Shown piece by piece: positions 41,718 through 63,747 of a DNA stretch of 64,000 bases. Both the position numbers and the translations under genes were made by a program. Below the pieces are notes generated by a model that did not search any database, was not told the origin of the DNA, and saw only the letters and a program-made list of their open reading frames with translations. Position 1 is the first letter of the stretch. Each line of letters begins with the position of its first letter. The DNA is from Macrostomum lignano (taxonomy: Eukaryota). Location of the stretch: NCBI GenBank assembly GCA_002269645.1, contig NIVC01000175.1:186001-250000 (forward strand). The letters are read 5' to 3'.

Positions 41718-44700
41718 TCTAATCTCTCTCTTCATATCTCTAACCTCTATCTCTATCTCTAATCTCCATCTTCATATCTAATCTCTCTCTCCCTATCTCT
41801 AATCTCTATCTCCATACCTAATCTCTCCACCAATCTATATCTCTCTCCACATATCTAATCTTTCTCTTTATATCTAATCTCTGACCCCATGTTTTATCTC
41901 TCTTCCTATAGTTAATTCTCTCTCATACCTAATCTCTCTCCCAATCTCTAATCTCTGTACCTGTGTCCAATGCCTCACTCTGCACAAAGCTATCTAAATC
42001 ATGAAACCCCAATAAAATTATGCAATCACCTGACACTTGAACGGCTTCACTCCCGTATGCGTCACCATATGCTTGTTAACGTCTCCCTTGTCAGCGAATC
42101 GTTTCTGACAGATCGGACAGGGGAACTGCCTCTGACCGGTGTGGCAGGTCAGGTGTCGGCGCAGATTAGTGTGCTGGTGAAAGCACTTGGCGCAGTAGGC
42201 GCACTGGTAGCATCTCTGATCCCCTCTGCCGCCTGTCTTCCTCAGCCGATGCACCGACTTGACGTGGTTGGCCAGCAGATGGGATTCAGCGAACGCCGAC
42301 TGGCAAATGGCACAGATGCACGGCCGAGAGAACGACGAGCCGGAGCCGACTCCGACATCATCAGCCATCGGATCGTCGCCATCCTCGTCGCTGGCATCAT
42401 TCTCGTCGTAGCCGTCGGCTTCATCGGAATCATCTTGAGCAGACTGGTGCGCGTCCTCTGAGTGTCGTTTGAGTCCAGCCAGGCTGGGGAACCACCGACC
42501 ACAGCGGGGGCACTCGTAACTGCCCGGATGGCTCAACAGGTGCCGGCGTAGTTCAGCTTCATCAACAAACCGACGATCGCACAGGGTGCAACGAGGACCG
42601 CTAATATTTTTATTAATATTACTATTGGTAGTAGTATTATTATTAAGACTTCTAAGCCGACGCTGCTTCTTTGGAGACGAGCCAGCCTCTTCTCCTTCAT
42701 CACCTTGATCGGGCCGATCAGCAGTCGCAACTTCGACATCGTCAGCCGACTGTCCGCGGCTGCTGAATTGCAGCAGACGAGAGTCGCGCAGATGGGCCTG
42801 ACGAACGTGGCGGCTCAGGTATTCAACGCGAGCGTAGCAATTGCCGCACAGACGGCACTGGAATCGCTTGCGACTGCCTTCGGGTAGAAGCACCAGGGCG
42901 CTCTGCAATGCGTCGTGAACTGACAGAGGCTCCTGATTAGAATTAGCTTCATCACCTGGTTCCTTATCAACCAGTTCCGTTGGAGCTTTTCTAGGCGAAC
43001 TGGACATTGCGGTGAAGCCTTCTTGGGCCGCTACCAGAGCGCGAACCTTGAGAAAAAGAAGACAAAATATTGTTTTGATTATTGTGCTATGTGGTATTAA
43101 TTACTTAGCTCACGGATTTAGCTTCAGATGTGGCGCCAAATATACCCTTACCCTTCTCTCTCTTGTAGCTTCAGATCTGGCGCCAAAAATACCCTACTCT
43201 CTCTTTTGTAGCTTCAGATCTGGCGCCAAAAATACCCTACTCTCTCTTGTAGCTTCAGATGTGGCGCCAAAAATACCCTACTCTCTTTTGGAGCTTCAGA
43301 TGTGGCGCCAAAAATACCCTACTCTCTCTTGGAGCTTCAGATGTGGCGCCAAAAATACCCTACTCTCTATTGGAGCTTCAGATGTGGCGCCAAAAATACC
43401 CTACTCTCTCTTGGAGCTTCAGATGTGGCGCCAAAAATACCCTACTCTCTCTTGTAGCTTCAGATGTGGCGCCAAAAATACCCTACTCTCTTTTGGAGCT
43501 TCAGATGTGGCGCCAAAAATACCCTACTCTCTCTTGGAGCTTCAGATGTGGCGCCAAAAATACCCTACTCTCTTTTGGAGCTTCAGATGTGGCGCCAAAA
43601 ATACCCTACTCTCTCTTGGAGCTTCAGATGTGGCGCCAAAAATACCCTACTCTCTCTTGGAGCTTCAGATGTGGCGCCAAAAATACCCTACTCTCTCTTG
43701 GAGCTTCAGATGTGGCGCCAAAAATACCCCACTCTGTATTGTAGCATCAGATCTGGCGCCAAAATACCCTACTCTGCATTGGAGCTTCAGATGTGGCGCC
43801 AAAAATACCCCACTCTGTATTGTAGCATCAGATCTGGCGCCAAAATACCCTACTCTGCATTGGAGCTTCAGATGTGGCGCCAAAAATACCCCACTCTGTA
43901 TTGTAGCATCAGATCTGGCGCCAAAATACCCTACTCTGTATTGGAGCTTCAGATGTGGCGCCAAAAATACCCTACTCTCTTTTGGAGCTTCAGATGTGGC
44001 GCCAAAAATACCCTACTCTCTCTTGGAGCTTCAGATGTGGCGCCAAAAATACCCTACTCTCTCTTGGAGCTTCAGATGTGGCGCCAAAAATACCCTACTC
44101 TCTCTTGGAGCTTCAGATGTGGCGCCAAAAATACCCTACTCTCTCTTGGAGCTTCAGATGTGGCGCCAAAAATACCCTACTCTCTCTTGGAGCTTCAGAT
44201 GTGGCGCCAAAAATACCCTACTCTCTCTTGGAGCTTCAGATGTGGCGCTAAAATACCCTACTCTCTCTTGTAGCTTCAGATCTGGCGCCAAAATCACGGG
44301 TCCTCTCTAGCTTCAGTCTGATGTCAGAAAACTAATTAGAATTGGAAAACTGGCATAACTAAAGTTAAAGACAGGTACAAACCGCTAACCTGACTGCCAA
44401 CGCTATCCGACAATCTTTTAGAAGCGGTTGCAACCCGAATAGTCGATATTGGCGCAGTGGAGCTAACGGCAGTTGAATTAGTTGACATTGACACTGGTTT
44501 CACAGCCGATCTGGGTATGCTGATAACACAGCAATTATTTCTTCGTTCCACTGTAATACCACTAGACGAAGTTGTAGCTGTATTGTTAGTAGAACCTACT
44601 ATGCTACTAACAGTAGCTGGAGTCACTGCACCAACAGATTTTGACACTGTAGAACCGGAGGCGTCCGACAGTCGAGTAATTTTAGTTCCAACACTATCAT

Positions 44701-49000: not shown

Positions 49001-49326
49001 CTCTTTCTCTCACATATTACCGGTAGCTAGTAGTAGCTTTGATATTATGTCAAATAAATCCATACAGTTTGGTTTAAAACCATTATAAAATTTATTGGAG
49101 CATTTTTGGCCAGCCGAGTTAATGGCATCGATAATCTAAAAAATCAGCCTTAAGGCCAGTCGTAAATACATGTAAATAGACGGAAGTTGAGAGAGGAAAA
49201 TGTCGAGGGGTCAGGCAATACATGTATGTATCAATATTGTCTGACTGCTAACAGATGTACATCGTTCGTTGCAAGTGTACACGTACGTTACATATAGCAG
49301 AGAGAAAGCAAATTCACAGCATCTGA

Positions 49327-50132
49327 ACTACGTAATGCGCAGATAGAGCAGGGTTTTGGAGGTGAGGTGGGTGTCAGAGCCAATGCAAATTCAACGCCTA
49401 TCTAAATACATTAGACCGATTCTAATTGGTCCAGAGTCATTATGTGAGACATTTATACTCTCATGTAAAATCTATACATGTAATCAGTGTATCGTACAGC
49501 AGCGACGAGTACAATATAGTACGCATAATTAGCGCTTCACCGTTGTTGTACGTAGAAACGCGCGCGCCCCCATCCCCACACAATGCAGCATTGGTGTACG
49601 CAGAATTAACTGTCTATATTAACTGTCCATATACCAAAAATTGGCAGAATTAGAGCGCTCACCCACCCCATAACGTCTATATTATTACTTGTCCATATTT
49701 ACTGTCCATCCCAAAATTGGTGTACGCGCAGAATTGTAGCGCCAGCCCACCCCATAACTGTCCATATTATTACTTGTCCATATTTACTGTCCATATATAC
49801 ACCCAAAATTGGTGTACGCGCAGAATTGTAGCGCCCGCCCACCCCATAGCTGTTTATATACCAAACTTCGTGTACGCACAGAATTGTAGCGCCCACCCAT
49901 CCAAGAAAATATTCTTTGACCCCCACAATTAATTGGCGGCCCCGCGCGGAGGCATGATGAGTCAGCCGCTGTAAATCGCCGCTATCCACACTGTTATATC
50001 CACTCCTTCCATACTTCACTCTCTAGAATTCAGCCCTCGTCGACACTCCGAGACAATTACGTCATCCACCAACCCCCTCTCCCAAATAAGTTTTCAAAAG
50101 GCGTATATATTTACACAAAAAGCCGGCCGAGC
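49327..50132 (+). repeat. Left terminal inverted repeat (806 bp)
   Basis: Reverse complement of 58963-59769 with scattered substitutions; starts ACTACGTAATG; contains ~90-bp imperfect sub-repeats. Confidence 0.97.
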
Positions 50133-50262
50133 CACAATGCTAACTTTATAGTCAGACACGTCATCAAGGTCTGAAAACACAAACTTCTATGCATGAAATA
50201 TTCTCGTTTAACAAGATGCCAAACCAATTTTGTTCAGACAGCAAACTATAAATAAGAAAATT

Positions 50263-50596
50263 CGGATTCTCGGCCGTTTATCTAAATTCACCTAGTTCAA
50301 TTAACACCCCAATCATGTGGAAAACACAGTGTTTGACAAGCAATTTTTGGTTGCCAAAGCACAAGAGGATCAGACCGCCAAAGTATGAACTGGCAACAAC
50401 TTGGAGCAAGGATTTCAGCACACCTCCATCGCCAGCACCGAAAATAGGTACAAAAGGCTCATTTTTTCTGGAATCCTCGATAACGACAACACCGTAAAAA
50501 GCTCGTTAACATGTAATTAAAACAAAAACTTATTGAGACTATCGGGTATATAAGCACCAACCCGGGGCACCAAGCACCCGTACCTGCAAATTTTTC
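50263..50596 (+). pseudogene. Internally deleted duplicate of the ORF1 cassette
   Basis: 50341-50596 matches 51031-51290; leader motifs CGGATTCTCGGC and CAGTGxTTGACAAG match 50598-50672; about 358 bp of ORF1 are missing. Residual ORF 50315-50497 matches the ORF1 C-terminus. Confidence 0.8.
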
Positions 50597-50674
50597 TCGG
50601 ATTCTCGGCAGTTTTTCAAGCTCAAATAACATCCCCACCACTAGTGCGAACAACGCAGCAGTGCTTGACAAGAA

Positions 50675-51211
50675 ATGAGCTGGATTTCCAGAGACTACCC
50701 CCTATTATCGAACGAGGAAAAAGACGAATATGAGGCCTTGAAAAAATCTGCTGACTGGTTGTGCATTTGCCACAGCAAACCGATTTCCGAGCGATTAGTC
50801 ACCTTCAATGCCAAGGTCGAGGAAATTGATCAAGGCCCCTACGACAGCCAAGACTACGCAGCAGCCAGGATAAATGAGCAACTACGGGACAAAATGAGAT
50901 TCAAAGCTGATTTAGCACGAATGGAAAGATTACTGGCTCCGATACTAAGTGAAGAGCATCGCCAAAAAATACGTTTTCGGAACCATCAAGATCTGTATAA
51001 TCCGTCGTGGGAGGAGCAACAAAAGATTTGGAATTTTTGGCTGCCAAAGCACAAGAGGAACAGGCTGCCAAAGCTTGAACTACCAGCAACTTGGAGCAAG
51101 GATTTCAGCACACCTCCAACGCCAGCACCCGAAAATAGGAACAAAAGGTTCATTTTTTCCGGAATCCTCGATAACGACAACTCTGTAAAAAGCTCGTTAT
51201 CGTGTAATTAA
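50675..51211 (+). CDS. Element ORF1, hypothetical protein (178 aa)
   Basis: ATG-initiated ORF downstream of TATATAAG (50547-50554); no recognisable motif. Confidence 0.65.
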   Translation: MSWISRDYPLLSNEEKDEYEALKKSADWLCICHSKPISERLVTFNAKVEEIDQGPYDSQDYAAARINEQLRDKMRFKADLARMERLLAPILSEEHRQKIRFRNHQDLYNPSWEEQQKIWNFWLPKHKRNRLPKLELPATWSKDFSTPPTPAPENRNKRFIFSGILDNDNSVKSSLSCN

Positions 51212-51306
51212 AACAAAAACTTATTGAGACTCTCGGGTATATAAGCACCAGCCCGGAGCATCTGCAAGCGCCCGTACCTGCAAATTTTTCTAAACAGACA
51301 AGAGAC

Positions 51307-52017
51307 ATGGAGACAGTGCAAGACTTCAACTGCGTCAAGCGAGAGCTGCTGGCACTCAAACCGCGAGGTCCGAGCTTCAACGGGGTTGAAACGTTTGACA
51401 TTGAATATGACGAACAGGGACCTCTCTACTTGGCCAATGCGGTCCCTGTTTTGATCGTCAAAGGTGTGCGTACTGACAACGAAGGTCGCGAATTCATCAT
51501 CATTGCACAAAAACACATTGAAAGCTGCATACCCTACACTTTCAACACTGTGGCGGAGCACCTTTCCAGCGAAAGTCTAGCTCTGCTGGGCTACAACCCA
51601 GCGTTTGGAGGTGACAGTGCAGCGTTTGGGCTGGCTCACGACTTTAAAATGTACGACCAAAACGGACTGCCTGTAGAGGATTACAAAAACAAGAGCGGCT
51701 ACTACAGGATTCTGTTTACTCTCGACACGGCCGTGATTCGAGACGCTGTTTTGACCGCAATGCCAAAAATTCAACAGCTACAGTTTGTCGAAGAAGCCAA
51801 ACAGGCATTCGATCGTTGCTTTTGGACGCCACCTCCAAAAATCAAGGTAGGCGTCAAGAAAGTAAGCAAGAAAGCAAAGAAACCACCAAAGCTTGTCAAG
51901 GAGAAGCAGCCAAAGGTGCCTAAAAGTCAGGCCAGAAAGCGACAGCATCAATCGAAACTAGTAGCAGCCAACGAATCAAAGAAGCGGTCGAAAGCCCCAA
52001 GAAGGATACGAAAGTAA
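51307..52017 (+). CDS. Element ORF2 (236 aa), possible OB-fold ssDNA-binding protein with a basic C-terminal tail
   Basis: ATG ORF downstream of TATATAAG (51238-51245). FKMYDQNG..SGYYRILFTL..PKIQQLQFVE resembles viral SSB beta-strand patterns (by eye only); Lys/Arg-rich NLS-like tail. Confidence 0.55.
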   Translation: METVQDFNCVKRELLALKPRGPSFNGVETFDIEYDEQGPLYLANAVPVLIVKGVRTDNEGREFIIIAQKHIESCIPYTFNTVAEHLSSESLALLGYNPAFGGDSAAFGLAHDFKMYDQNGLPVEDYKNKSGYYRILFTLDTAVIRDAVLTAMPKIQQLQFVEEAKQAFDRCFWTPPPKIKVGVKKVSKKAKKPPKLVKEKQPKVPKSQARKRQHQSKLVAANESKKRSKAPRRIRK

Positions 52018-52036
52018 AAACTGCCGAAAAATCTAC

Positions 52037-52516
52037 TTGCAGAACGTCGAGTGTGTGAACCGAGTGTTTTGCGCGAAATGGAGCCGCATGCCTGACTTGG
52101 ACTGGGCGAGCGCACGGACATTTCGCAGACCAAGAGCTCTTATCAATTTGCGAATAGGAAAATGTACAATCAACTTTTTTCAGCGTTCTTTGTCTGCAAT
52201 TGTATTCGGTTGTCGCTCAGTCAACCAAGTTTTGCGTCTTTTTCCTCAATGTAAACCAATTTCTGTTGTTGTTACCACTAGTACTTACCGCGCTGAAGTA
52301 GACAGATGGCCAAACTTTTTCCAAATTGCATACTCCGGATCCCGCTGGGTGAAGTGGGAGTGTGAAGTTTTCAATGGAATAGTAATAAAGTCTCCATTTC
52401 GCAATGCTAAATGTTTATTATGCGGAAAGAATGGCCGCCTTGTTTTCCTTGGAATACGAAACTTTAAAGAGCTCTGTCAAATGTACGATCATGTGACTAG
52501 CGTTTTGCATGCCTAA
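52037..52516 (+). CDS. Element ORF3, divergent TATA-box-binding-protein-like; start uncertain (frame open from 51965, first ATG 52088)
   Basis: LQNVECVN ~ TBP LQNIVSTVN; RRPRALINLRIGKCTINFF...IVFGCRS ~ RFAAVIMRIREPRTTALIF...CTGAKS; WECEVFNGIVIK...CLLCGKNGRLVFLGIRNFKELCQMYDHVTSVL ~ YEPELFPGLIYR...[31 protein letters not shown]. Confidence 0.7.
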   Translation: MQNVECVNRVFCAKWSRMPDLDWASARTFRRPRALINLRIGKCTINFFQRSLSAIVFGCRSVNQVLRLFPQCKPISVVVTTSTYRAEVDRWPNFFQIAYSGSRWVKWECEVFNGIVIKSPFRNAKCLLCGKNGRLVFLGIRNFKELCQMYDHVTSVLHA

Positions 52517-52622
52517 TCCATGTAGCTGTTGCGTAACTTTACTGCTTTACCACTGTACCGAATTTGTATGTACGTACAAGCTGCTATGAAATTGTCTATA
52601 AATATATTGTGCATAAATTGCA

Positions 52623-53012
52623 GTGCACTGCAACCAACATCTTTTTGCTAAACAAAATGAAAACGGAATCTCCAGACTATGTTCTTGTCGCGGCGAGCTC
52701 GCAGAGCTCGCCAAAGCCCGTCCCACTCTTCGGCGGGCCATTATTCGAGGTGCAGGCAAGGAACTGATTCATTGTCTCTGTGAATTGAGTCACAACGTGC
52801 TCCGGGGAAATATCGATCTTTCTCCGAAACAGTATCTACGATTAAAGCGATACAGAAGATCGTTGCGTGAATTGGCAGACACAAAATTGTCTATAAATAG
52901 GAAGAAGAATATGCTTCTCTCGAATCCTCAAGTCGGTGGCTTTCTACCCATCCTTGCATCTGTTGCTGCACCGCTAATATCAAGCCTGTTTGGCGGACTA
53001 CTTGGTCGCTAA
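52623..53012 (+). CDS. Small basic Polinton/adintovirus core-like protein with an adenovirus pX-like GGFLP hydrophobic tail; 5' end uncertain
   Basis: LAKARPTLRRAIIR..LIHCLCELSHNVLRGNIDLSPKQ..RLKRYRRSLRELA..QVGGFLPILASVAAPLI is a pattern I recognise from Maverick small ORFs. No in-frame ATG; the nearest ATG (52657) is out of frame. Confidence 0.7.
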   Translation: MHCNQHLFAKQNENGISRLCSCRGELAELAKARPTLRRAIIRGAGKELIHCLCELSHNVLRGNIDLSPKQYLRLKRYRRSLRELADTKLSINRKKNMLLSNPQVGGFLPILASVAAPLISSLFGGLLGR

Positions 53013-53013
53013 A

Positions 53014-53664
53014 ATGAATAAATACGTTGTTGTACCAGAAGAAGAATTTAATAGACTAAGTCAAGGCGCACCCCGAGAAATTGCATCCAAAACAGAATAT
53101 GAAAAACTCATTGAATACAACACTCAACTCCAAAATAAACTAAGTCAGATCAAGCAAAAGAAGAGTAATCGTTTTCCTGAACGACAACAACGTGTTTGGG
53201 ACATGCTGACAGAAAGATACCCAAATTTGGAGTACAACAAGTCGTGGGAAATTGTATTTGATGGAAAAACCTGGCCAGGAAGCAATATTTTCGATCTATT
53301 GAAGGAGATTACATCGAATGAAAGGCGCGACCGCCCAAGCCCAAAATATAGTACCGCTTTTTGGGCCCTGGCCGAAGAGGCAGATATTGCAAAAGCTCTA
53401 CTAGGACGACGCCAACAAGAAGAAGTCAGTGTGAAAAAAGAAGTCGGCACGGATCCGGATCGAGACGATTTTTTAGTCGAGCAAGCAATTGGAACTAATG
53501 ATTTCTACAACGACTTCCACAAAGACCAAGCCAGTGGCCTGAATGAAATTAAAAAATATGAAGATCGTGGCAGCAATGCCTACAGGCATGCTTCATACCA
53601 ACTTCGCGAACCAAAGAGGCGGCAGAAACCAGCAGTAAAATACGAGACGTTAAAAAAACTATAA
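53014..53664 (+). CDS. Conserved Polinton/adintovirus accessory protein (216 aa from ATG 53014)
   Basis: YNKSWEIVFDGKTWPGSNIFDLLKEIT...STAFWALAEEADIAKALLG resembles the 'GE(l/i)v.dG..i.gSnI.DL' Maverick ORF pattern (recognised from memory). Confidence 0.65.
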   Translation: MNKYVVVPEEEFNRLSQGAPREIASKTEYEKLIEYNTQLQNKLSQIKQKKSNRFPERQQRVWDMLTERYPNLEYNKSWEIVFDGKTWPGSNIFDLLKEITSNERRDRPSPKYSTAFWALAEEADIAKALLGRRQQEEVSVKKEVGTDPDRDDFLVEQAIGTNDFYNDFHKDQASGLNEIKKYEDRGSNAYRHASYQLREPKRRQKPAVKYETLKKL

Positions 53665-53704
53665 ATAGAAATCATTTTCATGATTTATAATCTGTTTTTG
53701 GATC

Positions 53705-53971
53705 ATGGGTGCCGCAGCTGTAACTTCAAAGCTTTGCTCAGACAAACCGTCTGTGGAGTTCAAGTGTAATTACTCATGCTGTGCATCGAATCTAGTTGCG
53801 AATGAGGGTGAAAACCGCTCTTCGGAGAGTGTACGAACAGGGGGACGCCGCTTTTACAAATGCTGCCCGTGTATATCAGGAGGCCAAACGGCTGGTCCCC
53901 TCCCTGACGAGACGCCAAACAGACGAATGGCTGAAGACCCAATCGAGCTACACCCGGCACAAGAGGGTTAA
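53705..53971 (+). CDS. Small putative myristoylated/Cys-rich protein overlapping the integrase 5' end
   Basis: ATG 46 bp after CTATAAATA (53659); MGAAAVTS N-terminus and CNYSCC cluster. Confidence 0.4.
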   Translation: MGAAAVTSKLCSDKPSVEFKCNYSCCASNLVANEGENRSSESVRTGGRRFYKCCPCISGGQTAGPLPDETPNRRMAEDPIELHPAQEG

Positions 53972-54869
53972 AAGAAAATTCCGAACCGGAAAAGTAATGT
54001 CGGGAGGCTTCATGGAAACTGTGCAAGCGGATTTGATGGACATGTCGCGATACGAACAATGGAATGATGGTCATCGATATATTCTAGTTGCAATTGACGT
54101 GCTTAGTAAATTGGCTTTTTGTCAGTCAATAAAATTGAAAAGCGACACTCCAAAGGCTTTTGAAAGCATGATCAAAGACTTCCCCATTAAGCCTTTATAT
54201 CTACACGTTGATCGAGGTACCGAGTTTTATAACAATCGCATGCAGAACTTACTGAAAGCCCATAATATCAAAATGTACAGTACAAACTCTGTATACAAGG
54301 CAAATATGGCTGAAAGGCTGATTAGGACTCTCCGAAAACGTTTAGCTCGCTACTTTGAGCATAAAAACACGTGGCGTTGGATCGACTATTTGCCAATATT
54401 GGTTAAAAGTTACAACAACACAGTACACTCTACTATTGATATGAAACCTTCGAGTGTCGGTCTGCACAATCAAAAAGAATTGTGGGAAAAGCTCTACAAG
54501 GATCCTGAATATGATGAACCAGTTTACCAAAAAGGGGACTTTGTCAGAATTTCAAAATCTCGTCGAGCCTTTGACAAGGAAGCATACGATATGTACAGCG
54601 AAGAAGTTTACGTTGTGTCTCAAGTATGCCCGGGACCGCCTCATTTTTATCGCATTTCCGACCTATCTGGAGAACAAATCGAGGGTCGATTCTACTATAA
54701 TGAACTTTCAAAGACGGTTCGACCGGACCGCTTTGTTATAGACAAAATTCTGCGTCGCAATGTCATCATCAATGGTGTCGCTCATCATTTCGTTAGTTGG
54801 CGCGGCTATCCCGAGTCGTTCAATGCATTTGTACCAGTTGAGGAAGTTATAAATATAAGACAAGGATGA
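53802..54869 (+). CDS. Retroviral-type (rve, DDE) integrase with a C-terminal chromodomain
   Basis: Catalytic D (TVQADLMDM), D (LHVDRGTEF) and E (NMAERLIRTLR); YNNTVHSTIDMKP; chromodomain FVIDKILR...HFVSWRGYPESFNAFVP. ORF intact. Confidence 0.95.
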   Translation: MRVKTALRRVYEQGDAAFTNAARVYQEAKRLVPSLTRRQTDEWLKTQSSYTRHKRVKRKFRTGKVMSGGFMETVQADLMDMSRYEQWNDGHRYILVAIDVLSKLAFCQSIKLKSDTPKAFESMIKDFPIKPLYLHVDRGTEFYNNRMQNLLKAHNIKMYSTNSVYKANMAERLIRTLRKRLARYFEHKNTWRWIDYLPILVKSYNNTVHSTIDMKPSSVGLHNQKELWEKLYKDPEYDEPVYQKGDFVRISKSRRAFDKEAYDMYSEEVYVVSQVCPGPPHFYRISDLSGEQIEGRFYYNELSKTVRPDRFVIDKILRRNVIINGVAHHFVSWRGYPESFNAFVPVEEVINIRQG

Positions 54870-54903
54870 ACACACATACACTCGAAACGTGTAGTATATT
54901 ACA

Positions 54904-56055
54904 ATGCATCTATTCCTACCTAGCAATGCGTGCGTTGAGCACTATCCTGAGAATAATTCGGCACATTATAGCATTAATTTGCCCGACACCCTCCACTTTC
55001 CGAATCATGAAGTCTGCATCGAACGGATCTACTTTTGTAAAGAATTCAAAACCGTCCCCGATAATCGAATGGTTGATGTCCTGACCAACGCTCCGAGGAT
55101 GAAGTGATTGACATTGAGGTGAGAGAAAAACCCGCCTCCACGTATAAACAGTTTGCGTCGGTTTCTCTCGCCGCGGGGCTATCAACAGCCAACGAAGTGG
55201 TTGATGCAATCATCGCCGATCTAAAATATGAGCAAGACGATAATGCGATGATTTGCATTGAGCGTTCACAGGAAGGCCAAATTTCAATTGTGAACAAATC
55301 ATGGTATGGTGCGAACATTAGGCTGTCCAGTAATGTGCGTAGCATGTTTAAAAAGGTTGATGACGCTGGAAATAAATCAAATATCGAAGTAACGACTTTT
55401 TTATTAAACCCAAGAAATTCGTTAGTATTCGCTATAGAATTGGAGTCCTCCTCCTCCATAGAGAGTCCGATGACTCTAACGTTTGAAAAGAGTGTCTGGC
55501 CTTCTAGAACGTCACTGCGGATTGCTAAAGGATTCTACCGCACGCCTGATGAGCTCTTAAATTATGTTAATGGAGCGCTTTGGGGTCGTTTCAAAGCTCC
55601 CAATAAGTCCAGCGACGAGAGTGGATGCATTCCGCTACAACCCTTTTCTGAACCGGTGTGAGTACAAACCCATTGAAAACATTTTATTCGACATTGGAGA
55701 GCTTGCTGCCATTCTCGGCTTTCGCGAAGATGTTTTCAATGAAACTCCAAAGACCGCTAAACGACCAATCGATTTAACAAATGGTGTACAAACTATGTAC
55801 ATCTATTCAAATATTGTCGACTCTGCCATTGTTGGAGACGTCAAAGTCCCCCTGCTTGGGGCAATTCCTTTGAATGAAAAGGTATACGGCGAACGAGAGT
55901 ACTACGAGTTTGTCAATCCATCCTACTTACCGTTGGTGAAACACCCATTCAAAACCATTGAGGTGCAAATCTGTGACGATATGGGCAAGTTAATGGATCG
56001 GATTCTTCGAGGCAAAACTGTTTTATCGATCAACATTCGTGAAATTAAGCTATAA
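54904..56055 (+). pseudogene. Minor capsid protein (penton-like), ~383 aa, broken by two compensating frameshifts (~55075-55104 and ~55600-55630)
   Basis: N-terminus LFLPSNACVEHYPENNSAHYSINLP; middle IAKGFYRTPDELLNYVN in a different frame; C-terminus MYIYSNIVDSAIVGDVKVPLL..F.NPSYLPL...KTIEVQICDDMG back in the first frame. Confidence 0.85.
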
Positions 56056-56099
56056 ATAAAGAAGTTTTCACGAATAAAAGGTAGCAACTGATCGACAAT

Positions 56100-56468
56100 A
56101 TGCCTTCAATCTTGATCGGAGGAGCTTTACCGGTATTTTCCGGTGCACAGCGCGGCAACGGCCTGTTTGGCAGCATTGCCCGATTTGCCCTGCCAATTTT
56201 AAAGAGTTTTGGCAAAAATATTCTTCGCCACGGAACACGAGCCCTAGCTACAACAGTTAGCGACACACTCGATCAAGGCGGGAACTTGAAAGAAGCGGCA
56301 TTGCGTAACTCTGTCCAGGCAGCTAAAGATGCTTTCAAGGACACAGTCGCACAACGAGGTAGCGGCAGACAAAGACGAAGAAAGATGACTAACAAAAAAA
56401 CGAGAAAAAGACTGCAGCATTCTGATATTTTCGACTCTATAAATAAAAAAACCCGTGCCAATAACTGA
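56100..56468 (+). CDS. Amphipathic, putatively membrane-lytic virion protein (adenovirus VI / cupiennin-like), 122 aa
   Basis: QRGNGLFGSIARFALPILKSFGKNILRHG amphipathic helix; QRGSG followed by a basic tail ending HSDIFD; sits between penton and hexon. Confidence 0.75.
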   Translation: MPSILIGGALPVFSGAQRGNGLFGSIARFALPILKSFGKNILRHGTRALATTVSDTLDQGGNLKEAALRNSVQAAKDAFKDTVAQRGSGRQRRRKMTNKKTRKRLQHSDIFDSINKKTRANN

Positions 56469-56511
56469 TCTGTCTATTAGAGCACCACACTAAGCCGCTG
56501 TTGAATGAAAA

Positions 56512-57793
56512 ATGACTGAGTGCCTGTGTACAAAGTCGGAATTCGAGCTTTTTGCTCCTCGCGCACACCAAATTGCTGCAATTAGCGCCACCACTGAAGA
56601 AGTTCACCCTGTTGCCAGTGTTGAAAATGCCAGCGTGGTCGAATTTAGGATTGTTGGTGGTGAGACGTTTATCGATCTTAACGACATTGACCTCGAGATT
56701 AAGGCCCGCGTTAAGCAGTCTAATGGTACAAATCTTGCTGCTGATTCGAATGTTGCGCCGGTCAATTACGTCCTTGAAAGCATGTTTAAAAACGTCACGT
56801 TGACAATCAACGGGACACACGTAGAGTCGAGCAATAACAACCACGCTTACAAGGCCTATATTCTCACGTGTTTGAATTACGGACACGATTCAAAAACTAA
56901 TCAACTGAGAATGATGGGCTACGCAAAGGACGCTGGAGGTCAAATGGCTGTGGTTGGAAATCCTGGCTTTGTAGCCCGCAAGGCGATGGCGGCAAACTCA
57001 CGCACCTTTCACCTTTATGGACCTCTTAGTTTAGACTTTTTTGTTACCAACGACCGAATGCTACTGCCATACACTGATATGGTAATTACGCTGACCATGC
57101 ACAATTCCGGCTTCGTTCTGGAAAACCACGCGGACGGGGTTGATGCGCGGCTAGTACTCGAGAGTGCCAAACTACATGTGCGCCGCGTCAAGGCAAACCC
57201 CCAATTGGCATTGGAGATTGAAGAACAACTAGGCAAACAGAATGCAATCTATCCGATTGAGCGACTTGTTGTGCACAATACTTCAGTGGCTGGCGGTGTT
57301 CGGGACATGTCAATCAATAATATATTTCCTGAACAAAAGCCTAAACTAGTGGTTGTTGGCATGGAACAGCGGCGCATACAACGGTGTGGCTACACATAAC
57401 CCGTTTAATTTTGAGCCATTTGGTGCCGACAGTGTCGCTCTGTATAAGGACGGAGTCAGTCTGTGTGGACAACCGTTTACTCCTCGATTCGGTGTTCATA
57501 ACTATGCTCGCGAGTATGCCATGCTACTAAAAAGCCTAGGAAAGATGAATCGGGACCTGGATATTGACGTATCATATTCCGACTATGGAGCTGGCTACTG
57601 CTTCTTCGCCTGGAATCTCATGCCCGACATGGAGCTGGGCGGGCATAGCATGCCTCGCGAGCGAGGGAATCTGACGCTACAAATAAAGTTTTCTGCTGCC
57701 TTGGCCGCAGGAATCAACGTGTTGGTGTTTGGCTACTTTGACAATACTGTGCAAATCACTCGCGGTCGTCAGGTTATTCTAGACTACGTGTAG
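56512..57793 (+). pseudogene. Major capsid protein (double jelly-roll, hexon/PY-like), ~427 aa, one frameshift at ~57364
   Basis: N-terminus CLCTKSEFELF...EEVHPVASV...VEFRI..FIDL. The frame break ATG G AAC AGC is restored by +2 nt to VVVGM(V)NSGAYNG..NPFNF. C-terminus GNLTLQIKFSAAL...VLVFGYFDNTVQITRGRQVILDY. Confidence 0.9.
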
Positions 57794-57843
57794 AAACAAA
57801 CATCTCTTTTTTATTCTCGAATAACGACCATATTCATGCCGAT

Positions 57844-58293
57844 ATGAATAGTCTAGATATATTAGAACGTCTAATACTACCTGTCCCTGTTCGAGTAACA
57901 CCAGTTGACAGGATTCCGCAGCCTGTTTATCCTGCTGCATACGTGATTAACTTTGACACTGGCAATCTACCAGGCACTCACTGGGCTTTAATTTGTCTTC
58001 ATGCCGATGAGAGCGTGACATTTTTTGACCCCTTGTGTATCGATCCTGTGCCAGATTTATTAAAGTTGTGGATCGCAAAGTATGTCCCTGTGGAGGTGGC
58101 CATGAACCGGCATCCTGTACAGCATCCGCTGAGTGTGACCTGCGGGGCTCATGTAATATTTGTGGCTGAAAAACACTTTCTGGAGGGTCTGTCAATTGAA
58201 AAAATATTGCGCGACTGTTATAGCACAAATCTTTACGAGAACGACTTGATGGTGCAGAATCACTGTCTACAAATAAAGCAGCATCATCCATAA
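57844..58293 (+). CDS. Adenain-like cysteine maturation protease (149 aa)
   Basis: YVINFD..NLPGTHW (His), FFDP (Asp), VQHPLSVTCG (Gln/Cys) catalytic motifs; intact. Confidence 0.92.
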   Translation: MNSLDILERLILPVPVRVTPVDRIPQPVYPAAYVINFDTGNLPGTHWALICLHADESVTFFDPLCIDPVPDLLKLWIAKYVPVEVAMNRHPVQHPLSVTCGAHVIFVAEKHFLEGLSIEKILRDCYSTNLYENDLMVQNHCLQIKQHHP

Positions 58294-58295
58294 AT

Positions 58296-58946
58296 ATGAT
58301 TGGGCTGCCTATCAAAATGTATCAAACAATAGACCCCGACTCTTTAAAATTTGCCCCCAAAACGTCTGCAATTTTTGCTGGGGTGGCTCAAAGCGGCAAG
58401 ACCACACTTGTGAAAAACCTATTGAGACAAGAATTTTTTCAAGATCCGAAGCCGATTCGCGTAGACTGGTTTGGCCACTATCCGGATCCTGAACTGTTTG
58501 AATTGCCGTACCCTGTAAATTTTCGTTCGTGTACATTTGATCCTGAACAATATGTCCCTGAACCAAATATTCTGCTTGTCGTCGACGACCAAATGCATGC
58601 CATGGAAAAGAGTGGCGCTTTTACAACTTTTTTCACGCGCAAAGTCTCCCACGTGGGGTTCCGACTTTGGTATCTTGTGCAAAACCTGTTTGCAAAGGGT
58701 AAGGAGCACCGAACTCAGTCGCTCAATTCGAACTACCTTGTTTTATTCCGCAATGTACGGGATGCCAGCACAGTGTCTCATATTGCAAGGCAGCTGGTCC
58801 CCACTAATCCAAAAAGTTTTGTCAAAACGTATGAGGATGCTACTCGCGACCCCTACTCATACTTGATTGTAAACTGTTTGCAAAATGCTCCTGCTCGCTA
58901 TTATTCAAACGTTTTGGGTCGTCACCCAATTGTGTATGCTAAATAA
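58296..58946 (+). CDS. A32/FtsK-HerA-family genome packaging ATPase (216 aa)
   Basis: Walker A GVAQSGKT, Walker B LLVVDD, SH..F.LWYLVQN and R..SLNSNYLVLFRN..D motifs; intact. Confidence 0.93.
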   Translation: MIGLPIKMYQTIDPDSLKFAPKTSAIFAGVAQSGKTTLVKNLLRQEFFQDPKPIRVDWFGHYPDPELFELPYPVNFRSCTFDPEQYVPEPNILLVVDDQMHAMEKSGAFTTFFTRKVSHVGFRLWYLVQNLFAKGKEHRTQSLNSNYLVLFRNVRDASTVSHIARQLVPTNPKSFVKTYEDATRDPYSYLIVNCLQNAPARYYSNVLGRHPIVYAK

Positions 58947-58962
58947 ATATATACGTATCAAA

Positions 58963-59769
58963 GCTCGGCCGGCTTTTTGTGTAAATATATACGCCTTTTG
59001 AAAACTTATTTGGGAGAGTGGGTTGGGGGATGACGTAATTGTCTCGGAGTGTCGACGAGGGCTGAATTCTAGAGAGTGAAGTATGGAAGGGGTTGATATA
59101 ACAGTGTGGATAGCGGCGATTTACAGCGGCTGACTCATCATGCCTCCGCGCGGGGCCGCCAATTAATTGTGGGGGTCAAAGAATATTTTCTTGGATGGGT
59201 GGGCGCTACAATTCTGTGCGTACACGAAGTTTGGTATATAAACAGCTATGGGGTGGGCGGGCGCTACAATTCTGCGCGTACACCAATTTTGGGTGTATAT
59301 ATGGACAGTAAATATGGACAAGTAATAATATGGACAGTTATGGGGTGGGCGGACGCTACAATTCTGTGCGTACACCAATTTTGGGATGGACAGTAAATAT
59401 GGACAAGTAATAATATGGACAGTTATGGGGTGGGTGGGCGCTCTAATTCTGCCAATTTTTGGTATATGGACAGTTAATATAGACAGTTAATTCTGCGTAC
59501 ACCAATGCTGCATTGTGTGGGGATGGGGGCGCGCGCGTTTCTACGTACAACAACGGTGAAGCGCTAATTATGCGTACTATATTGTACTCGTCGCTGCTGT
59601 ACGATACACTGATTACATGTATAGATTTTACATGAGAGTATAAATGTCTCACATAATGACTCTGGACCAATTAGAATCGGTCTAATGTATTTAGATAGGC
59701 GTTGAATTTGCATTGGCTCTGACACCCACCTCACCTCCAAAACCCTGCAGAATCTGCACATTACGTAGT
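58963..59769 (-). repeat. Right terminal inverted repeat (807 bp)
   Basis: Ends CATTACGTAGT, followed by the TSD ATCTGA. Confidence 0.97.
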
Positions 59770-60606
59770 ATCTGATCATCTGCCTGTAATGCGGGAGAAT
59801 GCTGCACATGGCATTTGCGGTGCCGCTTCTGGTTTGCCTGCCATCTGGCGGTCGTAGTTTATCTAGAATTCATCGGCTGATGTTTCAGCGGCTGCCATCG
59901 GACAGATAGATCGTGTTGCTCTCGCGACGCTGCGACTGTCTGCACTTCGGAGACACCATCCACTGCTCAGCTTTTTGCGCCTCGGCCGGCCGACGCGCAC
60001 ACGGCACTCGACAGTCAGCACTGCGTCCTTCCGCAGCTGCCTCCGCTTGCACATCCGGCGGTGGCTTCTGGCCTGCTGCTTTTGCTCCGTGACGCTGCGC
60101 CACAGGTCCGTCGCTGAATCAGTACTTGTTGGTTGAAAACGACCCTAGAAGCAGGCGGAGCCCTAATTCGTCCCAGCATCAGTTCAGTCGGCGACTTCTT
60201 AGTCAGCGCTCGATTGGATGACCAATACGTCAGCAGCAGCTCCTGGAGCACGTACGGGACCTGCTGCACCGGCGCCAGCATGCAGAGTGGTCTTGATTAA
60301 GCCGTTGTACCTCTCGACTCTGCAATTCTGTTGTGGGCACTAGAACGGAGTGAGATGGTGCCTGATGATGGCGACCGAGCGGAGGAAGTCCGTGAACTCA
60401 CTCAATGCAAATTAATGCCATGGTAATTTTGTCTAAAGTCCCAGCGGATTAACAGGCTGCAACACAGTCACACAGGCAGTCACTGATGAAGATTCTCTAT
60501 ACGTGAGTGGTCCTTGGCTATGATCTTCAGGCCACTTGAAGTAGAGAACGTGGACTGCGATGAAAAATCGTTGAGACTGCACCAAGCTTGGCCGCCGGCA
60601 GCTTGT

Positions 60607-61467: not shown

Positions 61468-62093
61468 CTTGTTCCCCAGTGTCTAGAAATGGAAGTTTTT
61501 GAGTGACTGATCACCACTCTTAAACTCTTCAAGCTCTCCGACGCTGTCAATTTGCAGCTGTCGCCATGGACCCGTACAGTAGCTCTGTCGCTGACCATAG
61601 GACCTTGATCGGCTTGAACACATTTTCGGAAAGGACGCAATCGCTACAGTTCCGCAGGAAGGCCTCCACGCAACGGTAGATTCGCGACGACAAGGCAATG
61701 CGCCTTGACATTTTGCCAATAACGCAATGTCCCTGATGCGTCTCTGCCAGCACAAGGTCGCGGAAGTTAGCTGGGATGATCCTGATCTTCGGCTGGTCAT
61801 CCGTTGATGAGGTACCCGATGACTCGCTGGAGTTGATTGTCGCTCTTCGTTACATTAGCCAGTTGAATGACTGAGATCGGCTGGGCGCTTCTGGGCGCTG
61901 ACCTGGCCAGCACCAGGTTGATGTCGGACTCACTGACTGTACTTTCAATTGCCATCGTAGCCATAGGGAGACAGAAAGTCGAACTGGACGTTGAGCTTGC
62001 TGTGGAGGTACTCGATGCTAGTTAAAGTCGTAAACAAAGAGTCGCTCAATACCAGCACTTGATTTTCGGTGAGCTCCAGACGCAGGCCAGAGC

Positions 62094-62359
62094 GGGTCGC
62101 TTTCATAAGACCGAAATTTCACAACGCCGAAAAGCACTACCCTTCACAAGACCGAAACTTCATAAGACCGAAATTTCACAACGCCGAAAAATCGAAATGC
62201 AGGGCCCTTCACACGACCGAAACTTCATAGGACAGAAAACTCAAAATGCTTATGTACTAAATGGCATTTTATTTTATGCGGCCTTACGAAATTTCAGTCT
62301 TGTGAAGGGCCCTGCATTTTGGGTTTTCGGCGTTGTGAAATTTCGGTCTTATGAAACCC
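62094..62359. mobile_element. MITE (~265 bp) with long imperfect TIRs
   Basis: TTTCATAAGACCGAAATTTCACAACGCCGAAAA...AAATGCAGGGCCCTTCAC is mirrored at the right end; termini GGGTCG...CCC. Confidence 0.75.
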
Positions 62360-63747
62360 CCCCCCCCAGGCAGAGCCTCCCTCTTCGACACAGAGTATCG
62401 GCGCTCGGTGGTCGGAAAATTACAGGCTATGTGGCGAGGGCGACTTAGCTCTCGGTGTCATCGTCGCTGCTAACGCGGATACAACAGTTTCGTGATCTGC
62501 GGTCGAAGAATTTCAGGCACGTCGGTGCTGATGAGATACATGTAAGCCGCTATAATTCACCTCTCTGAAGGTGGCCTCGAATTTCGCGTCGCAGTTCCAT
62601 AGCGCTTCCTTGTGCAAGAGCGCTGTCAGCAACTCGGCGACGTGCAGACAGGTTCTTGATGCAGAACAGAAAGAAATTTGAAAAGCCGCGAGAAATGAAG
62701 CCAAGCTCTGCTATATTTCAGGGTGCTTGAGTTGCGATATAGTGGCGGTCTTGATAGGAAGCCATCAACGCCTTTGATGCCTTCTACGTTTTGGGTAAAA
62801 TTGGTTCAAGAACACATGACCAACCTGAAGCAAATCAGTAAGTCTACTTACCTTCTTTCTAAGTCCTCTCAGCAACAACGGTAAATCAGGAGACATTCGC
62901 TATTCTGCGACACAGGTGCACGGATTTAGCAAGCACTTGAGCAACAAATTCCAGCTTTCAAGACATATTTAGCAACCGCTTCATCCGCTCAACAAGGGAT
63001 ACTTCATCAGCGAGACCATGAATGTGACTAGACACCGATCGGAATCCCAAACGGCGAAGAGCGCTCATTTTGTTGATGGAGGCACCTGCTATAAAAATTC
63101 TGGTCTCTTGTAATGAACTGAAGTAATTCACACTCTCAAAATTTTATATCTTCCAATTAGTTTAAGTCACAGAGGCTTAACTTCACAATAGCCATCCGGC
63201 CTGCTTAAGGTTCTTCTCTCTTCTCAGCTGGCTTTTTCTCTTCTCTATTCTCTTCTCTACTCTTCTATCTCGTCTCATCTCTCATCTTTTTCAGCCTGGT
63301 TCACTTTTCAGGATATTTTACGTGTGCCAGCGCAATGAGAGGGCTGGGAACAGAGAAGTGAGTCGGGGAGGTCTACCACAGAGGGAGTTGTCTCTCTCGC
63401 CACGTTGCCATGGCTACATCAATCAGCCACAGAGCCGTCCTAGTGAGCGGCCTTTGAGCTTAGCTAATAATTGTTATTGTTATCATGCAACCACAGATGA
63501 TGGAGTGAGGTGGAGGAAGAGATAACCAACTGAAGCTTCTCATACTGGATAGGGGTGGAGGAGTTTTGAGCAGCTCCCAAAAAGTATTCAGCAACAGAAG
63601 CAAGCTGTCGTCAGCCAGCAAGACCACAGGCACCTCAAGGTGTACACTAGCCTCGGCCCCCCCCCTATCTATCTATCTACGAACGTATCTATCTATCTAT
63701 CTATCTATGTAACGGGCAATGCCACCATTTCAGTGCTGCTCACAGCA

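Follow-up and report, generated by a model that had tools for sequence, protein, structure and literature searches.

A shortened TBP homologue in a polymerase-less Polinton-like element of Macrostomum lignano

A TBP-fold gene in a Polinton-like element

The window analyzed here, a stretch of 64,000 nucleotides of the Macrostomum lignano genome (contig NIVC01000175.1, positions 186,001 to 250,000, assembly GCA_002269645.1), encodes at positions 52043-52516 a real, shortened homologue of TBP, the protein that binds the TATA box. This is a TBP-fold gene, yet not a canonical TBP, and it lies within a polymerase-less Polinton-like element. An earlier note, made from the letters alone, had read a TBP-like ORF in a virus-like element at this place, and profile searches, structure prediction and the pattern of selection now support that claim. 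The lineage of the window element, hereafter group A, has two subfamilies, and the comparisons below use the window copy, copies of subfamily 2 and relatives from public collections.

The window protein alone has zero matches in Pfam or the PDB, and a weak TBP match in NCBIfam (E 0.026). PF00352, and no other family, is matched by the subfamily-2 copy and by each of four database relatives (E 2e-5 to 0.04). Against a cut-off of 22.9 bits, the subfamily-2 copy scores 22.7 bits and the relative P0004 24.6 bits, and the match covers only the C-lobe. A profile built from these six proteins, with no cellular TBP among them, gave 35 matches in the PDB at E<=10, all 35 to TBP (best 1.9e-6). The Atlas feature search assigned 28 of its 30 matches to the TBP set; its recognition score was low, which makes it weak when taken alone. 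HHalign gave a probability of 94 against a profile of the TBPs of two other lineages of the same genome (groups B and C, see below) and of 37 against two host proteins, in both cases over the C-lobe alone.

The AlphaFold2 model computed on the six-protein alignment (pLDDT 70.6, pTM 0.57) has two lobes with 5+5 strands and two closing helices; a single-sequence fold (pLDDT 38) was discarded. Foldseek returned 44 PDB matches at E<=0.001, all of those listed being TBP (best E 9e-8), and viral TBPs lead the BFVD matches where rows carry names (best E 2.9e-8). VIA also ranked TBP first (Z 10.4, rmsd 8.4 over 154 residues), the next non-TBP fold having a Z of 6.5; the alignments to TBPs run over the full length. 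The structures superpose only loosely (TM 0.41-0.47, rmsd 8-10 A), so that the geometry and orientation of the lobes are not to be trusted. The saddle of two PF00352 repeats that the earlier note named as a check is supported by the two-lobed model and by the rank of TBP in Foldseek; in Pfam, the window protein has no match and its relatives match with the C-lobe only. The frame had also been described as about the length of a TBP core. It does hold 183 open codons (51965-52516), but the first 23-26 residues overlap the tail of the upstream ORF, which leaves a core of 157-160 aa, below that of the host. The by-eye alignment of the two pseudo-repeats holds in the C-lobe (WECEVF with YEPELF, NGRLVFLG with SGKVVLTG, and the closing helix), but the register of the first strand is uncertain: MAFFT backs the proposed LQN pairing, the relative P0002 lacks that Asn, and the strand break in the model points to the Asn at 52058.

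The core evolves as a protein-coding sequence. Between the window and the subfamily-2 copy L021, a single pair with dS near 2, dN/dS is 0.073 over 157 codons, close to that of the integrase (0.079), and the other two plus-strand frames of the same pair give 1.27 and 2.32. The genome of the species has 91 matches, 37 of which run through the core with no stop (16 being 95-100% identical and 21 being 74-77% identical), counts that overstate the independent insertions since the host TBP itself is present three times in this assembly. Some genomic copies have stops or frameshifts. Relatives in public collections are 61-68% identical, plus one at 44%, and scans of viral contigs and metagenome contigs found no related loci.

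Architecture of the element

The element is bounded by terminal inverted repeats (TIRs) and a 6-bp target site duplication (TSD), and every one of its genes lies on the plus strand. Its features, apart from the promoter-like words and the putative splice sites given further below, are:

49327-59769: Polinton/Maverick-like element of 10,443 bp, bounded by TIRs and a 6-bp TSD
49321..49326 (left) and 59770-59775 (right): TSD of 6 bp, ATCTGA
49327..50132, plus strand: left TIR, ~806 nt, terminus 5'-ACTAC
50675..51211, plus strand: orf1, 178 aa, of no known family, under purifying selection (dN/dS 0.10)
51238..51245, plus strand: TATATAAG box preceding orf2, kept in both subfamilies, a candidate early promoter read by the host
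51307..52017, plus strand: orf2, of no known family; conserved over codons 1-180 (51307-51846), with 74% between subfamilies, and variable in its basic tail
52043..52516, plus strand: TBP-like core, 157 codons
52657..53012, plus strand: small conserved Polinton ORF, presumably PZ-like, split over two frames in the window copy
53014..53664, plus strand: 216-aa ORF of no known family
53802..54869, plus strand: rve integrase (PF00665 E 2.5e-8) with a weak chromodomain
54895..56055, plus strand: gene taken, mainly from its position, to be minor-capsid-like; frames split in the window copy
56100..56468, plus strand: small basic ORF, presumably core-protein-like
56512..57793, plus strand: major-capsid-like gene, so labelled from position, size and similarity to group B; in two frames in the window copy, dN/dS 0.03
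57844..58293, plus strand: cysteine-protease-like ORF; its His, Gln and Cys line up with the protease of group B, itself matching Peptidase_C5
58296..58946, plus strand: P-loop ATPase, assumed from its position to be of the packaging type
58963..59769, minus strand: right TIR

Three genes are thus split between frames in the window copy. The capsid-like and ATPase genes are ~25-37% identical to those of the group B elements, which bear pPolB, and the capsid-like genes had no family match in Pfam and NCBIfam searches. No usable match to orf2 was found in Pfam, NCBIfam, the PDB or the Atlas. In groups B and C an ORF also lies upstream of TBP, but the idea that orf2 is its homologue was dropped (BLAST E>1).

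When the region between the TIRs was searched by tblastn with the group B pPolB, neither group A subfamily gave a match, and every long ORF there is already assigned; the element is therefore a polymerase-less Polinton-like element and not an autonomous Polinton. Since both subfamilies (dS ~2) lack pPolB while their capsid-like genes are still strongly selected (0.03), the polymerase-less lineage is apparently old and not the product of a fresh deletion. The termini of group A are 5'-ACTAC, with clean 6-bp TSDs in both subfamilies, and the resolved ends of groups B and C are AGTAGTAG; this difference may have a bearing on whether group A is copied in trans by the group B polymerase.

Two further observations concern the left side of the element. 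The subfamily-2 copy L021 carries beside its left TIR a Fic-domain gene (1130-1909 in L021 coordinates, PF02661 E 6.7e-14) and a 117-aa ORF (1944-2297), both missing from the window copy. Window positions 50250-50670 are a partial duplicate of the end of orf1 and the region upstream of orf2, with a second TATATAAG box at 50547.

Key residues and shape of the lobes

Residues of the TBP-like core are numbered here from 52034, and the ones that matter most are:

N9 (52058): the first-lobe Asn, in the register suggested by the model
F49 (52178) and F113 (52370): the two intercalating Phe that are kept
E109 (52358) and E111 (52364): the two glutamates of the C-lobe stirrup
C130 (52421): the Cys replacing the fourth Phe

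With cellular and archaeal TBPs (PF00352; PDB 1mp9, 7o4i_O, 4rod_B) the protein has in common two lobes of five strands, the first-lobe Asn, two of the four Phe, the E-x-E-x-F stirrup of the C-lobe and the closing helix. It differs from the host TBP (~15% identity) in an N-lobe of 73 residues instead of 90, 17 fewer, and in lacking a start codon of its own; in the model, helix H1 appears to be absent and H2 is predicted to have 7 residues. Of the intercalating Phe that the earlier note proposed to check, F49 and F113 are present, that of C.L5.1 is replaced by Cys throughout group A, and the first one of the N-lobe has no assignable position. Group A also has Thr instead of the second-lobe Asn. 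E109 and E111 are invariant in the 15 element and host proteins aligned (15/15). The basic N-lobe H2 surface for TFIIA, TAF1, Brf1, Mot1 and NC2 is not found in group A.

These positions have been discussed for other viruses. In the accessible text of one survey (PMC7221094), the positions of E109 and E111 (C.L3.2 and C.L3.4) are TFIIB contacts, the basic patch of the N-lobe is a regulator site, and the C-lobe L5.1 Phe is described as crucial to TATA binding. According to the same text, these glutamates vary in most viral TBPs, which bring their own TFIIB; C.L3.2 is conserved in ~40%, nearly all viruses with a TBP encode a TFIIB, and the regulator surface is lost from viral N-lobes. Among the ORFs of the window element, neither TFIIB nor RNA polymerase was detected. 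We infer from these residues that the grip on DNA is altered, that docking of TFIIB is retained and that control by TFIIA, TAF1 and Mot1 is lost. A model pairing the TBP-like protein with part of the host TFIIB had a score of 0.00, without folded controls, and weighs neither way.

Other TBP-bearing lineages in the same genome

A PF00352 scan of the same genome, in which 150 of 330 candidates were scored, showed the host TBP, a paralogue that we take to be TRF2-like, and many repeated matches. Among 20 repeated stretches examined, 17 have capsid-like or ATPase neighbours. They include group B elements, which measure ~17 kb and encode pPolB, a PC4-like protein and a TBP (PF00352 E 1e-22) whose nearest named relatives are Macrostomum lignano proteins (75-94%), and group C elements of 10-11 kb, with a TBP (PF00352 E 2e-19) and with pPolB remnants in two of the three tested. 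The TBPs of both groups carry their own ATG. The cores of the host TBP and of its paralogue are intronless, each with three near-identical assembly copies (L033-L044). The PC4-like protein of groups B and C matches PF02229 with E 8e-5 (L106 7330-8058) and 0.02 (L064 5609-6463), and is, beside the TBP, a second product of these elements that relates to transcription.

A tree of the second lobe was computed with 19 rows, leaving out the giant-virus and archaeal rows, P0006, P0010 and P0014, and four group B near-copies. Groups A (100/99) and C (99/96) each fall on one side of a branch, and group B does not. The branches of this second-lobe tree are long, and it is no guide to the origin of these TBPs.

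Promoter-like words before the element genes

Seven copies of a TATA-like word, and one variant, stand before most of the other genes of the window element:

50246..50254, plus strand: word 1, CTATAAATA; in subfamily 2 it lies 39 nt before the 117-aa ORF missing from the window copy
52596..52604, plus strand: word 2, CTATAAATA, 60 nt ahead of the small conserved ORF
52891-52899: word 3, inside the small conserved Polinton ORF
53659-53667: word 4, overlapping the stop of the 216-aa ORF
54847-54855: word 5, TTATAAATA, within the integrase span 53802..54869
56050-56058: word 6, at the end of the minor-capsid-like gene
56437-56445: word 7, within the core-protein-like ORF
58267-58275: variant word CTACAAATA, conserved, preceding the ATPase

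Each of the two group A elements tested has 7 copies of TATAAATA on the plus strand and 0 on the minus strand, for a shuffle mean of ~0.15, and its sites are conserved between subfamilies in 7 cases out of 7, as against 8.6% of all 8-mers. The word differs between lineages. Five group B elements have no TATAAATA and 7-9 plus-strand copies of TTAAGAA, mostly directly before genes, and three group C elements have 4-5 copies of TATAA(G/A)A, a weaker case in that 3 of 200 shuffles equalled the count in one of the three. The words of groups B and C are related to each other, and in both groups the lineage word also precedes the TBP gene; in group A, the TBP-like ORF has no box of its own and orf2 has a different conserved box, TATATAAG. 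The words were chosen from the same elements after looking at them, which biases the shuffle tests in their favour, and co-evolution cannot be shown with only three lineages. TATAAATA fits the canonical TATA consensus, so that it might be read by the host TBP. An upstream ORF, conserved and without a Pfam family, overlaps the TBP gene in groups B and C and has the promoter word of the TBP inside its coding sequence (L055 4293-5147; L120 8821-9702).

A gene without a start codon of its own

The first in-frame ATG of the TBP-like gene in the window is at 52088, and that Met is missing in subfamily 2, where the first in-frame ATG lies 438 nt inside the core. An upstream in-frame ATG was found in none of the 29 subfamily-1 loci scored (30 examined). 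Similarity between the subfamilies stops at codon 180-182 of orf2 and restarts a few bases before 52037, and the edges of this spacer look like splice sites (AAG/GTAGG at the donor):

51847..52042, plus strand: candidate intron or outron, from a GTAGG donor at 51847 to an acceptor ending at 52042, in phase 0 at both ends
52037..52042, plus strand: TTGCAG acceptor, which fits the top trans-splice acceptor of the host, [T/C]TNCAG; its TTG is a candidate non-AUG start

The spacer measures 195-200 nt in subfamily 1 and 66-67 nt in subfamily 2. Donor and acceptor are present in all 30 subfamily-1 loci, the donor being in phase 0 in 23. Of 12 other loci, 8 have both, each time in phase 0; in three degraded copies the acceptor has changed, and in one it was not found. 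TTGCAG is the only one of 13 [C/T]TNCAG sites to be conserved between subfamilies, and the 15 codons ahead of the internal Met have a dN/dS of 0.068. The lack of a conserved ATG together with a conserved in-phase acceptor at the 5' edge suggests that the start is probably provided by splicing, either in cis or with the spliced leader of the host.

Two other explanations were rejected. A start at the internal ATG at 52088 does not agree with its absence from subfamily 2 and with the selection on the 15 codons before it. A conserved programmed frameshift would call for a constant offset between orf2 and the TBP-like frame, but among 29 subfamily-1 loci 15 have -1, 11 have +1 and 3 have 0, and of the 8 intact subfamily-2 copies 7 have +1; the remaining one (L022) reads through as a 359-aa fusion, probably through a homopolymer indel.

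The conservation of the acceptor has to be read with care. Runs of four identical codons occur in 4% of coding windows (51/1266), which makes the conserved acceptor suggestive only, and the substitutions in the spacer, which look neutral, fall short of significance (Fisher p 0.06, 0.13). If the first-strand register of the earlier note holds, Leu-Gln-Asn would be conserved as protein and the acceptor would be coincidental. Assembled contigs cross the acceptor unspliced in three of four run assemblies, and no junction at the acceptor is seen among 7 listed joints and 16 of 41 loose ends shown; such contigs, of uncertain RNA status, may be DNA and may lose rare forms, so they are no test of splicing.

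The published Macrostomum leader is found in its own genome, with 61 matches to the leader 21-mer and 30 exact matches to the leader end followed by a donor. In six examined matches to the 21-mer (L098-L103) the donor is missing, and these may derive by retrocopying from leader-capped RNAs. No retrocopy of the TBP-like gene was seen, the 61 leader and 91 TBP matches having no contig name in common. Within the accessible text of PMC8629364, [T/C]TNCAG is the top trans-splice acceptor, the leader ends in ATG, and trans-splicing predominates where an upstream cis donor is absent. The flatworm leader AUG is able to start ORFs (PMC9851317, in the part citing Cheng et al. 2006). As in the slORFs described there, the acceptor of the TBP-like gene is in phase with the leader AUG, matches the host motif and precedes an ORF without ATG; unlike them, it belongs to an element and not to a host gene, is a candidate only, and has a competing upstream cis donor.

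Among these routes, we place first cis-splicing from the donor at 51847 to 52042/52043, a plausible event that would fuse orf2 to the TBP-like core (180+157 codons) and that we rate above a leader start given the presence of an upstream cis donor. Trans-splicing to the host leader, whose last three bases, AUG, would supply the start, is possible and somewhat less likely. A UUG start at 52037 seems doubtful, and little weight is left for other routes.

A possible late-promoter factor

With moderate confidence, we favour the view that the protein is an element-encoded late-promoter factor that would act with host TFIIB and Pol II through TATAAATA, likely from a spliced RNA. Host machinery would transcribe orf2 and the TBP-like gene from the TATATAAG box before orf2, and the RNA, once spliced at 52042/52043, would yield the TBP-like protein. 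This protein is predicted to bind the TATAAATA words, which would be the late promoters; host TFIIB would dock on its invariant glutamates, and the genes for integrase, capsid and packaging would thereby receive Pol II. With its shortened N-lobe, the protein would escape the control of TFIIA, TAF1, Mot1/BTAF1 and NC2. A role in late-gene transcription had been suggested in the earlier note, and the evidence that has since accrued, i.e. lineage-specific TATA-like words before capsid and integrase genes and invariant glutamates, is circumstantial. The replacement of the C.L5.1 Phe by Cys and of the second Asn by Thr, and the first N-lobe Phe that cannot be placed, count against the binding of TATAAATA. 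A broader version of this scheme, which we regard as unlikely, is that each of the three lineages has a private code, with one TBP variant per word on top of host TFIIB and Pol II, and that the polymerase-less lineage takes its AUG from the host leader.

The alternative that survives best, although we give it rather low credence, is that the words are ordinary TATA boxes for the host TBP and that the element protein is a decoy for TFIIB or a competitor of the host TBP. It would account for a protein in which the TFIIB-contact glutamates are invariant and the DNA face has lost one or two Phe and one Asn, and the group A word fits the host consensus. However, the word varies by lineage, that of group B (TTAAGAA) being non-canonical, and a single exact word at 7 of 7 sites is stricter than what a host TBP is known to need. 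Less probable still is a DNA-binding module of TBP fold, possibly fused to orf2, that would serve replication, packaging or chromatin. The absence of pPolB from both group A subfamilies, their unusual termini and the possible in-frame fusion to a 180-aa domain of no known family would all suit such a module, as would the divergent Giardia TBP, which lacks the phenylalanines and binds ssDNA according to the accessible text of PMC12209930. Yet the pPolB-bearing group B elements also encode a TBP, and a module of this kind would not need the TFIIB-contact glutamates.

The words could instead be 3'-end or polyadenylation signals, with a coincidental link to the TBP, since two window sites overlap stops and two run into AATAAA. 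We find this improbable: at three sites the word falls within the ORF ahead of it, as much as 120 nt short of the stop, and seven of the eight window sites are 28-142 nt before the ATG of the next gene, the eighth being 39 nt before an ORF in subfamily 2. Finally, a decayed, untranslated remnant, as the missing ATG and the stops or frameshifts of some copies might suggest, is hardly credible for an ORF with a dN/dS of 0.07, 37 of 91 matches spanning the core without a stop, and relatives elsewhere that are 61-68% identical.

Comparison with known systems

That large dsDNA viruses encode TBPs is well established (PMC7221094; PMC5825884; PMC12529657, each in its accessible part). The NCLDV TBPs, B263R of ASFV and BcRF1/ORF24 of herpesviruses have in common with the protein described here a virus-encoded TBP fold, and are among its BFVD matches; a late-promoter role is described for ORF24 (PMC12529657, excerpt), and the loss of the regulator surface in viral N-lobes (PMC7221094, same part as above) resembles group A. 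In contrast with the large viruses, both glutamates are invariant here, the element is of 10 kb, and TFIIB and RNA polymerase are undetected in it.

Long TIRs, a 6-bp TSD, an rve integrase, and capsid-like, protease-like and ATPase genes under purifying selection are shared with Polinton/Maverick elements (adintoviruses), as presented in the accessible text of PMC8097293 and PMC8502044. Group A differs from them by the lack of pPolB and by termini in 5'-ACTAC and not in the AG/AGT motifs given in PMC8097293. The statement of the earlier note that TBP is not a canonical Polinton gene agrees with the eight vertebrate core genes, described as intronless, of the available part of PMC8097293, which do not include it; but TBP is listed for MELD viruses, from non-animal data sets, in the Fig. 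5 legend of PMC8502044 and its preprint. The text supplement of PMC8502044 has no TBP, the term TATA is absent from the accessible text of PMC8097293, and TATA and TBP are both absent from that of the main text of PMC10748475. In the literature covered, mostly papers available without subscription, we found no study of TBP in animal Polintons. To this, the present work would add a start-less, probably spliced gene and three co-resident pairs of TBP and word.

If our reading is right, viral TBP use would extend from giant viruses and herpesviruses to integrating elements of 10-17 kb, with the host TFIIB contact kept. We know of no established account of how Polintons/Mavericks switch on their capsid genes. 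A mini-TBP encoded by the element and a lineage word would provide a simple answer, which can be tested with a matrix of three proteins and three words (TATAAATA, TTAAGAA, TATAAGAA), the relatives coming from a genetically tractable flatworm. Natural pairs of TBP and word would inform the rewiring of TBP specificity, and a leader-supplied start, if true, would tie the expression of the element to hosts whose leader ends in AUG.

Two further features of the window lie beyond the element: a C2H2 zinc-finger ORF outside it, at 42018-43007 on the minus strand, and short inverted repeats clustered to its right, at 62086-62371.
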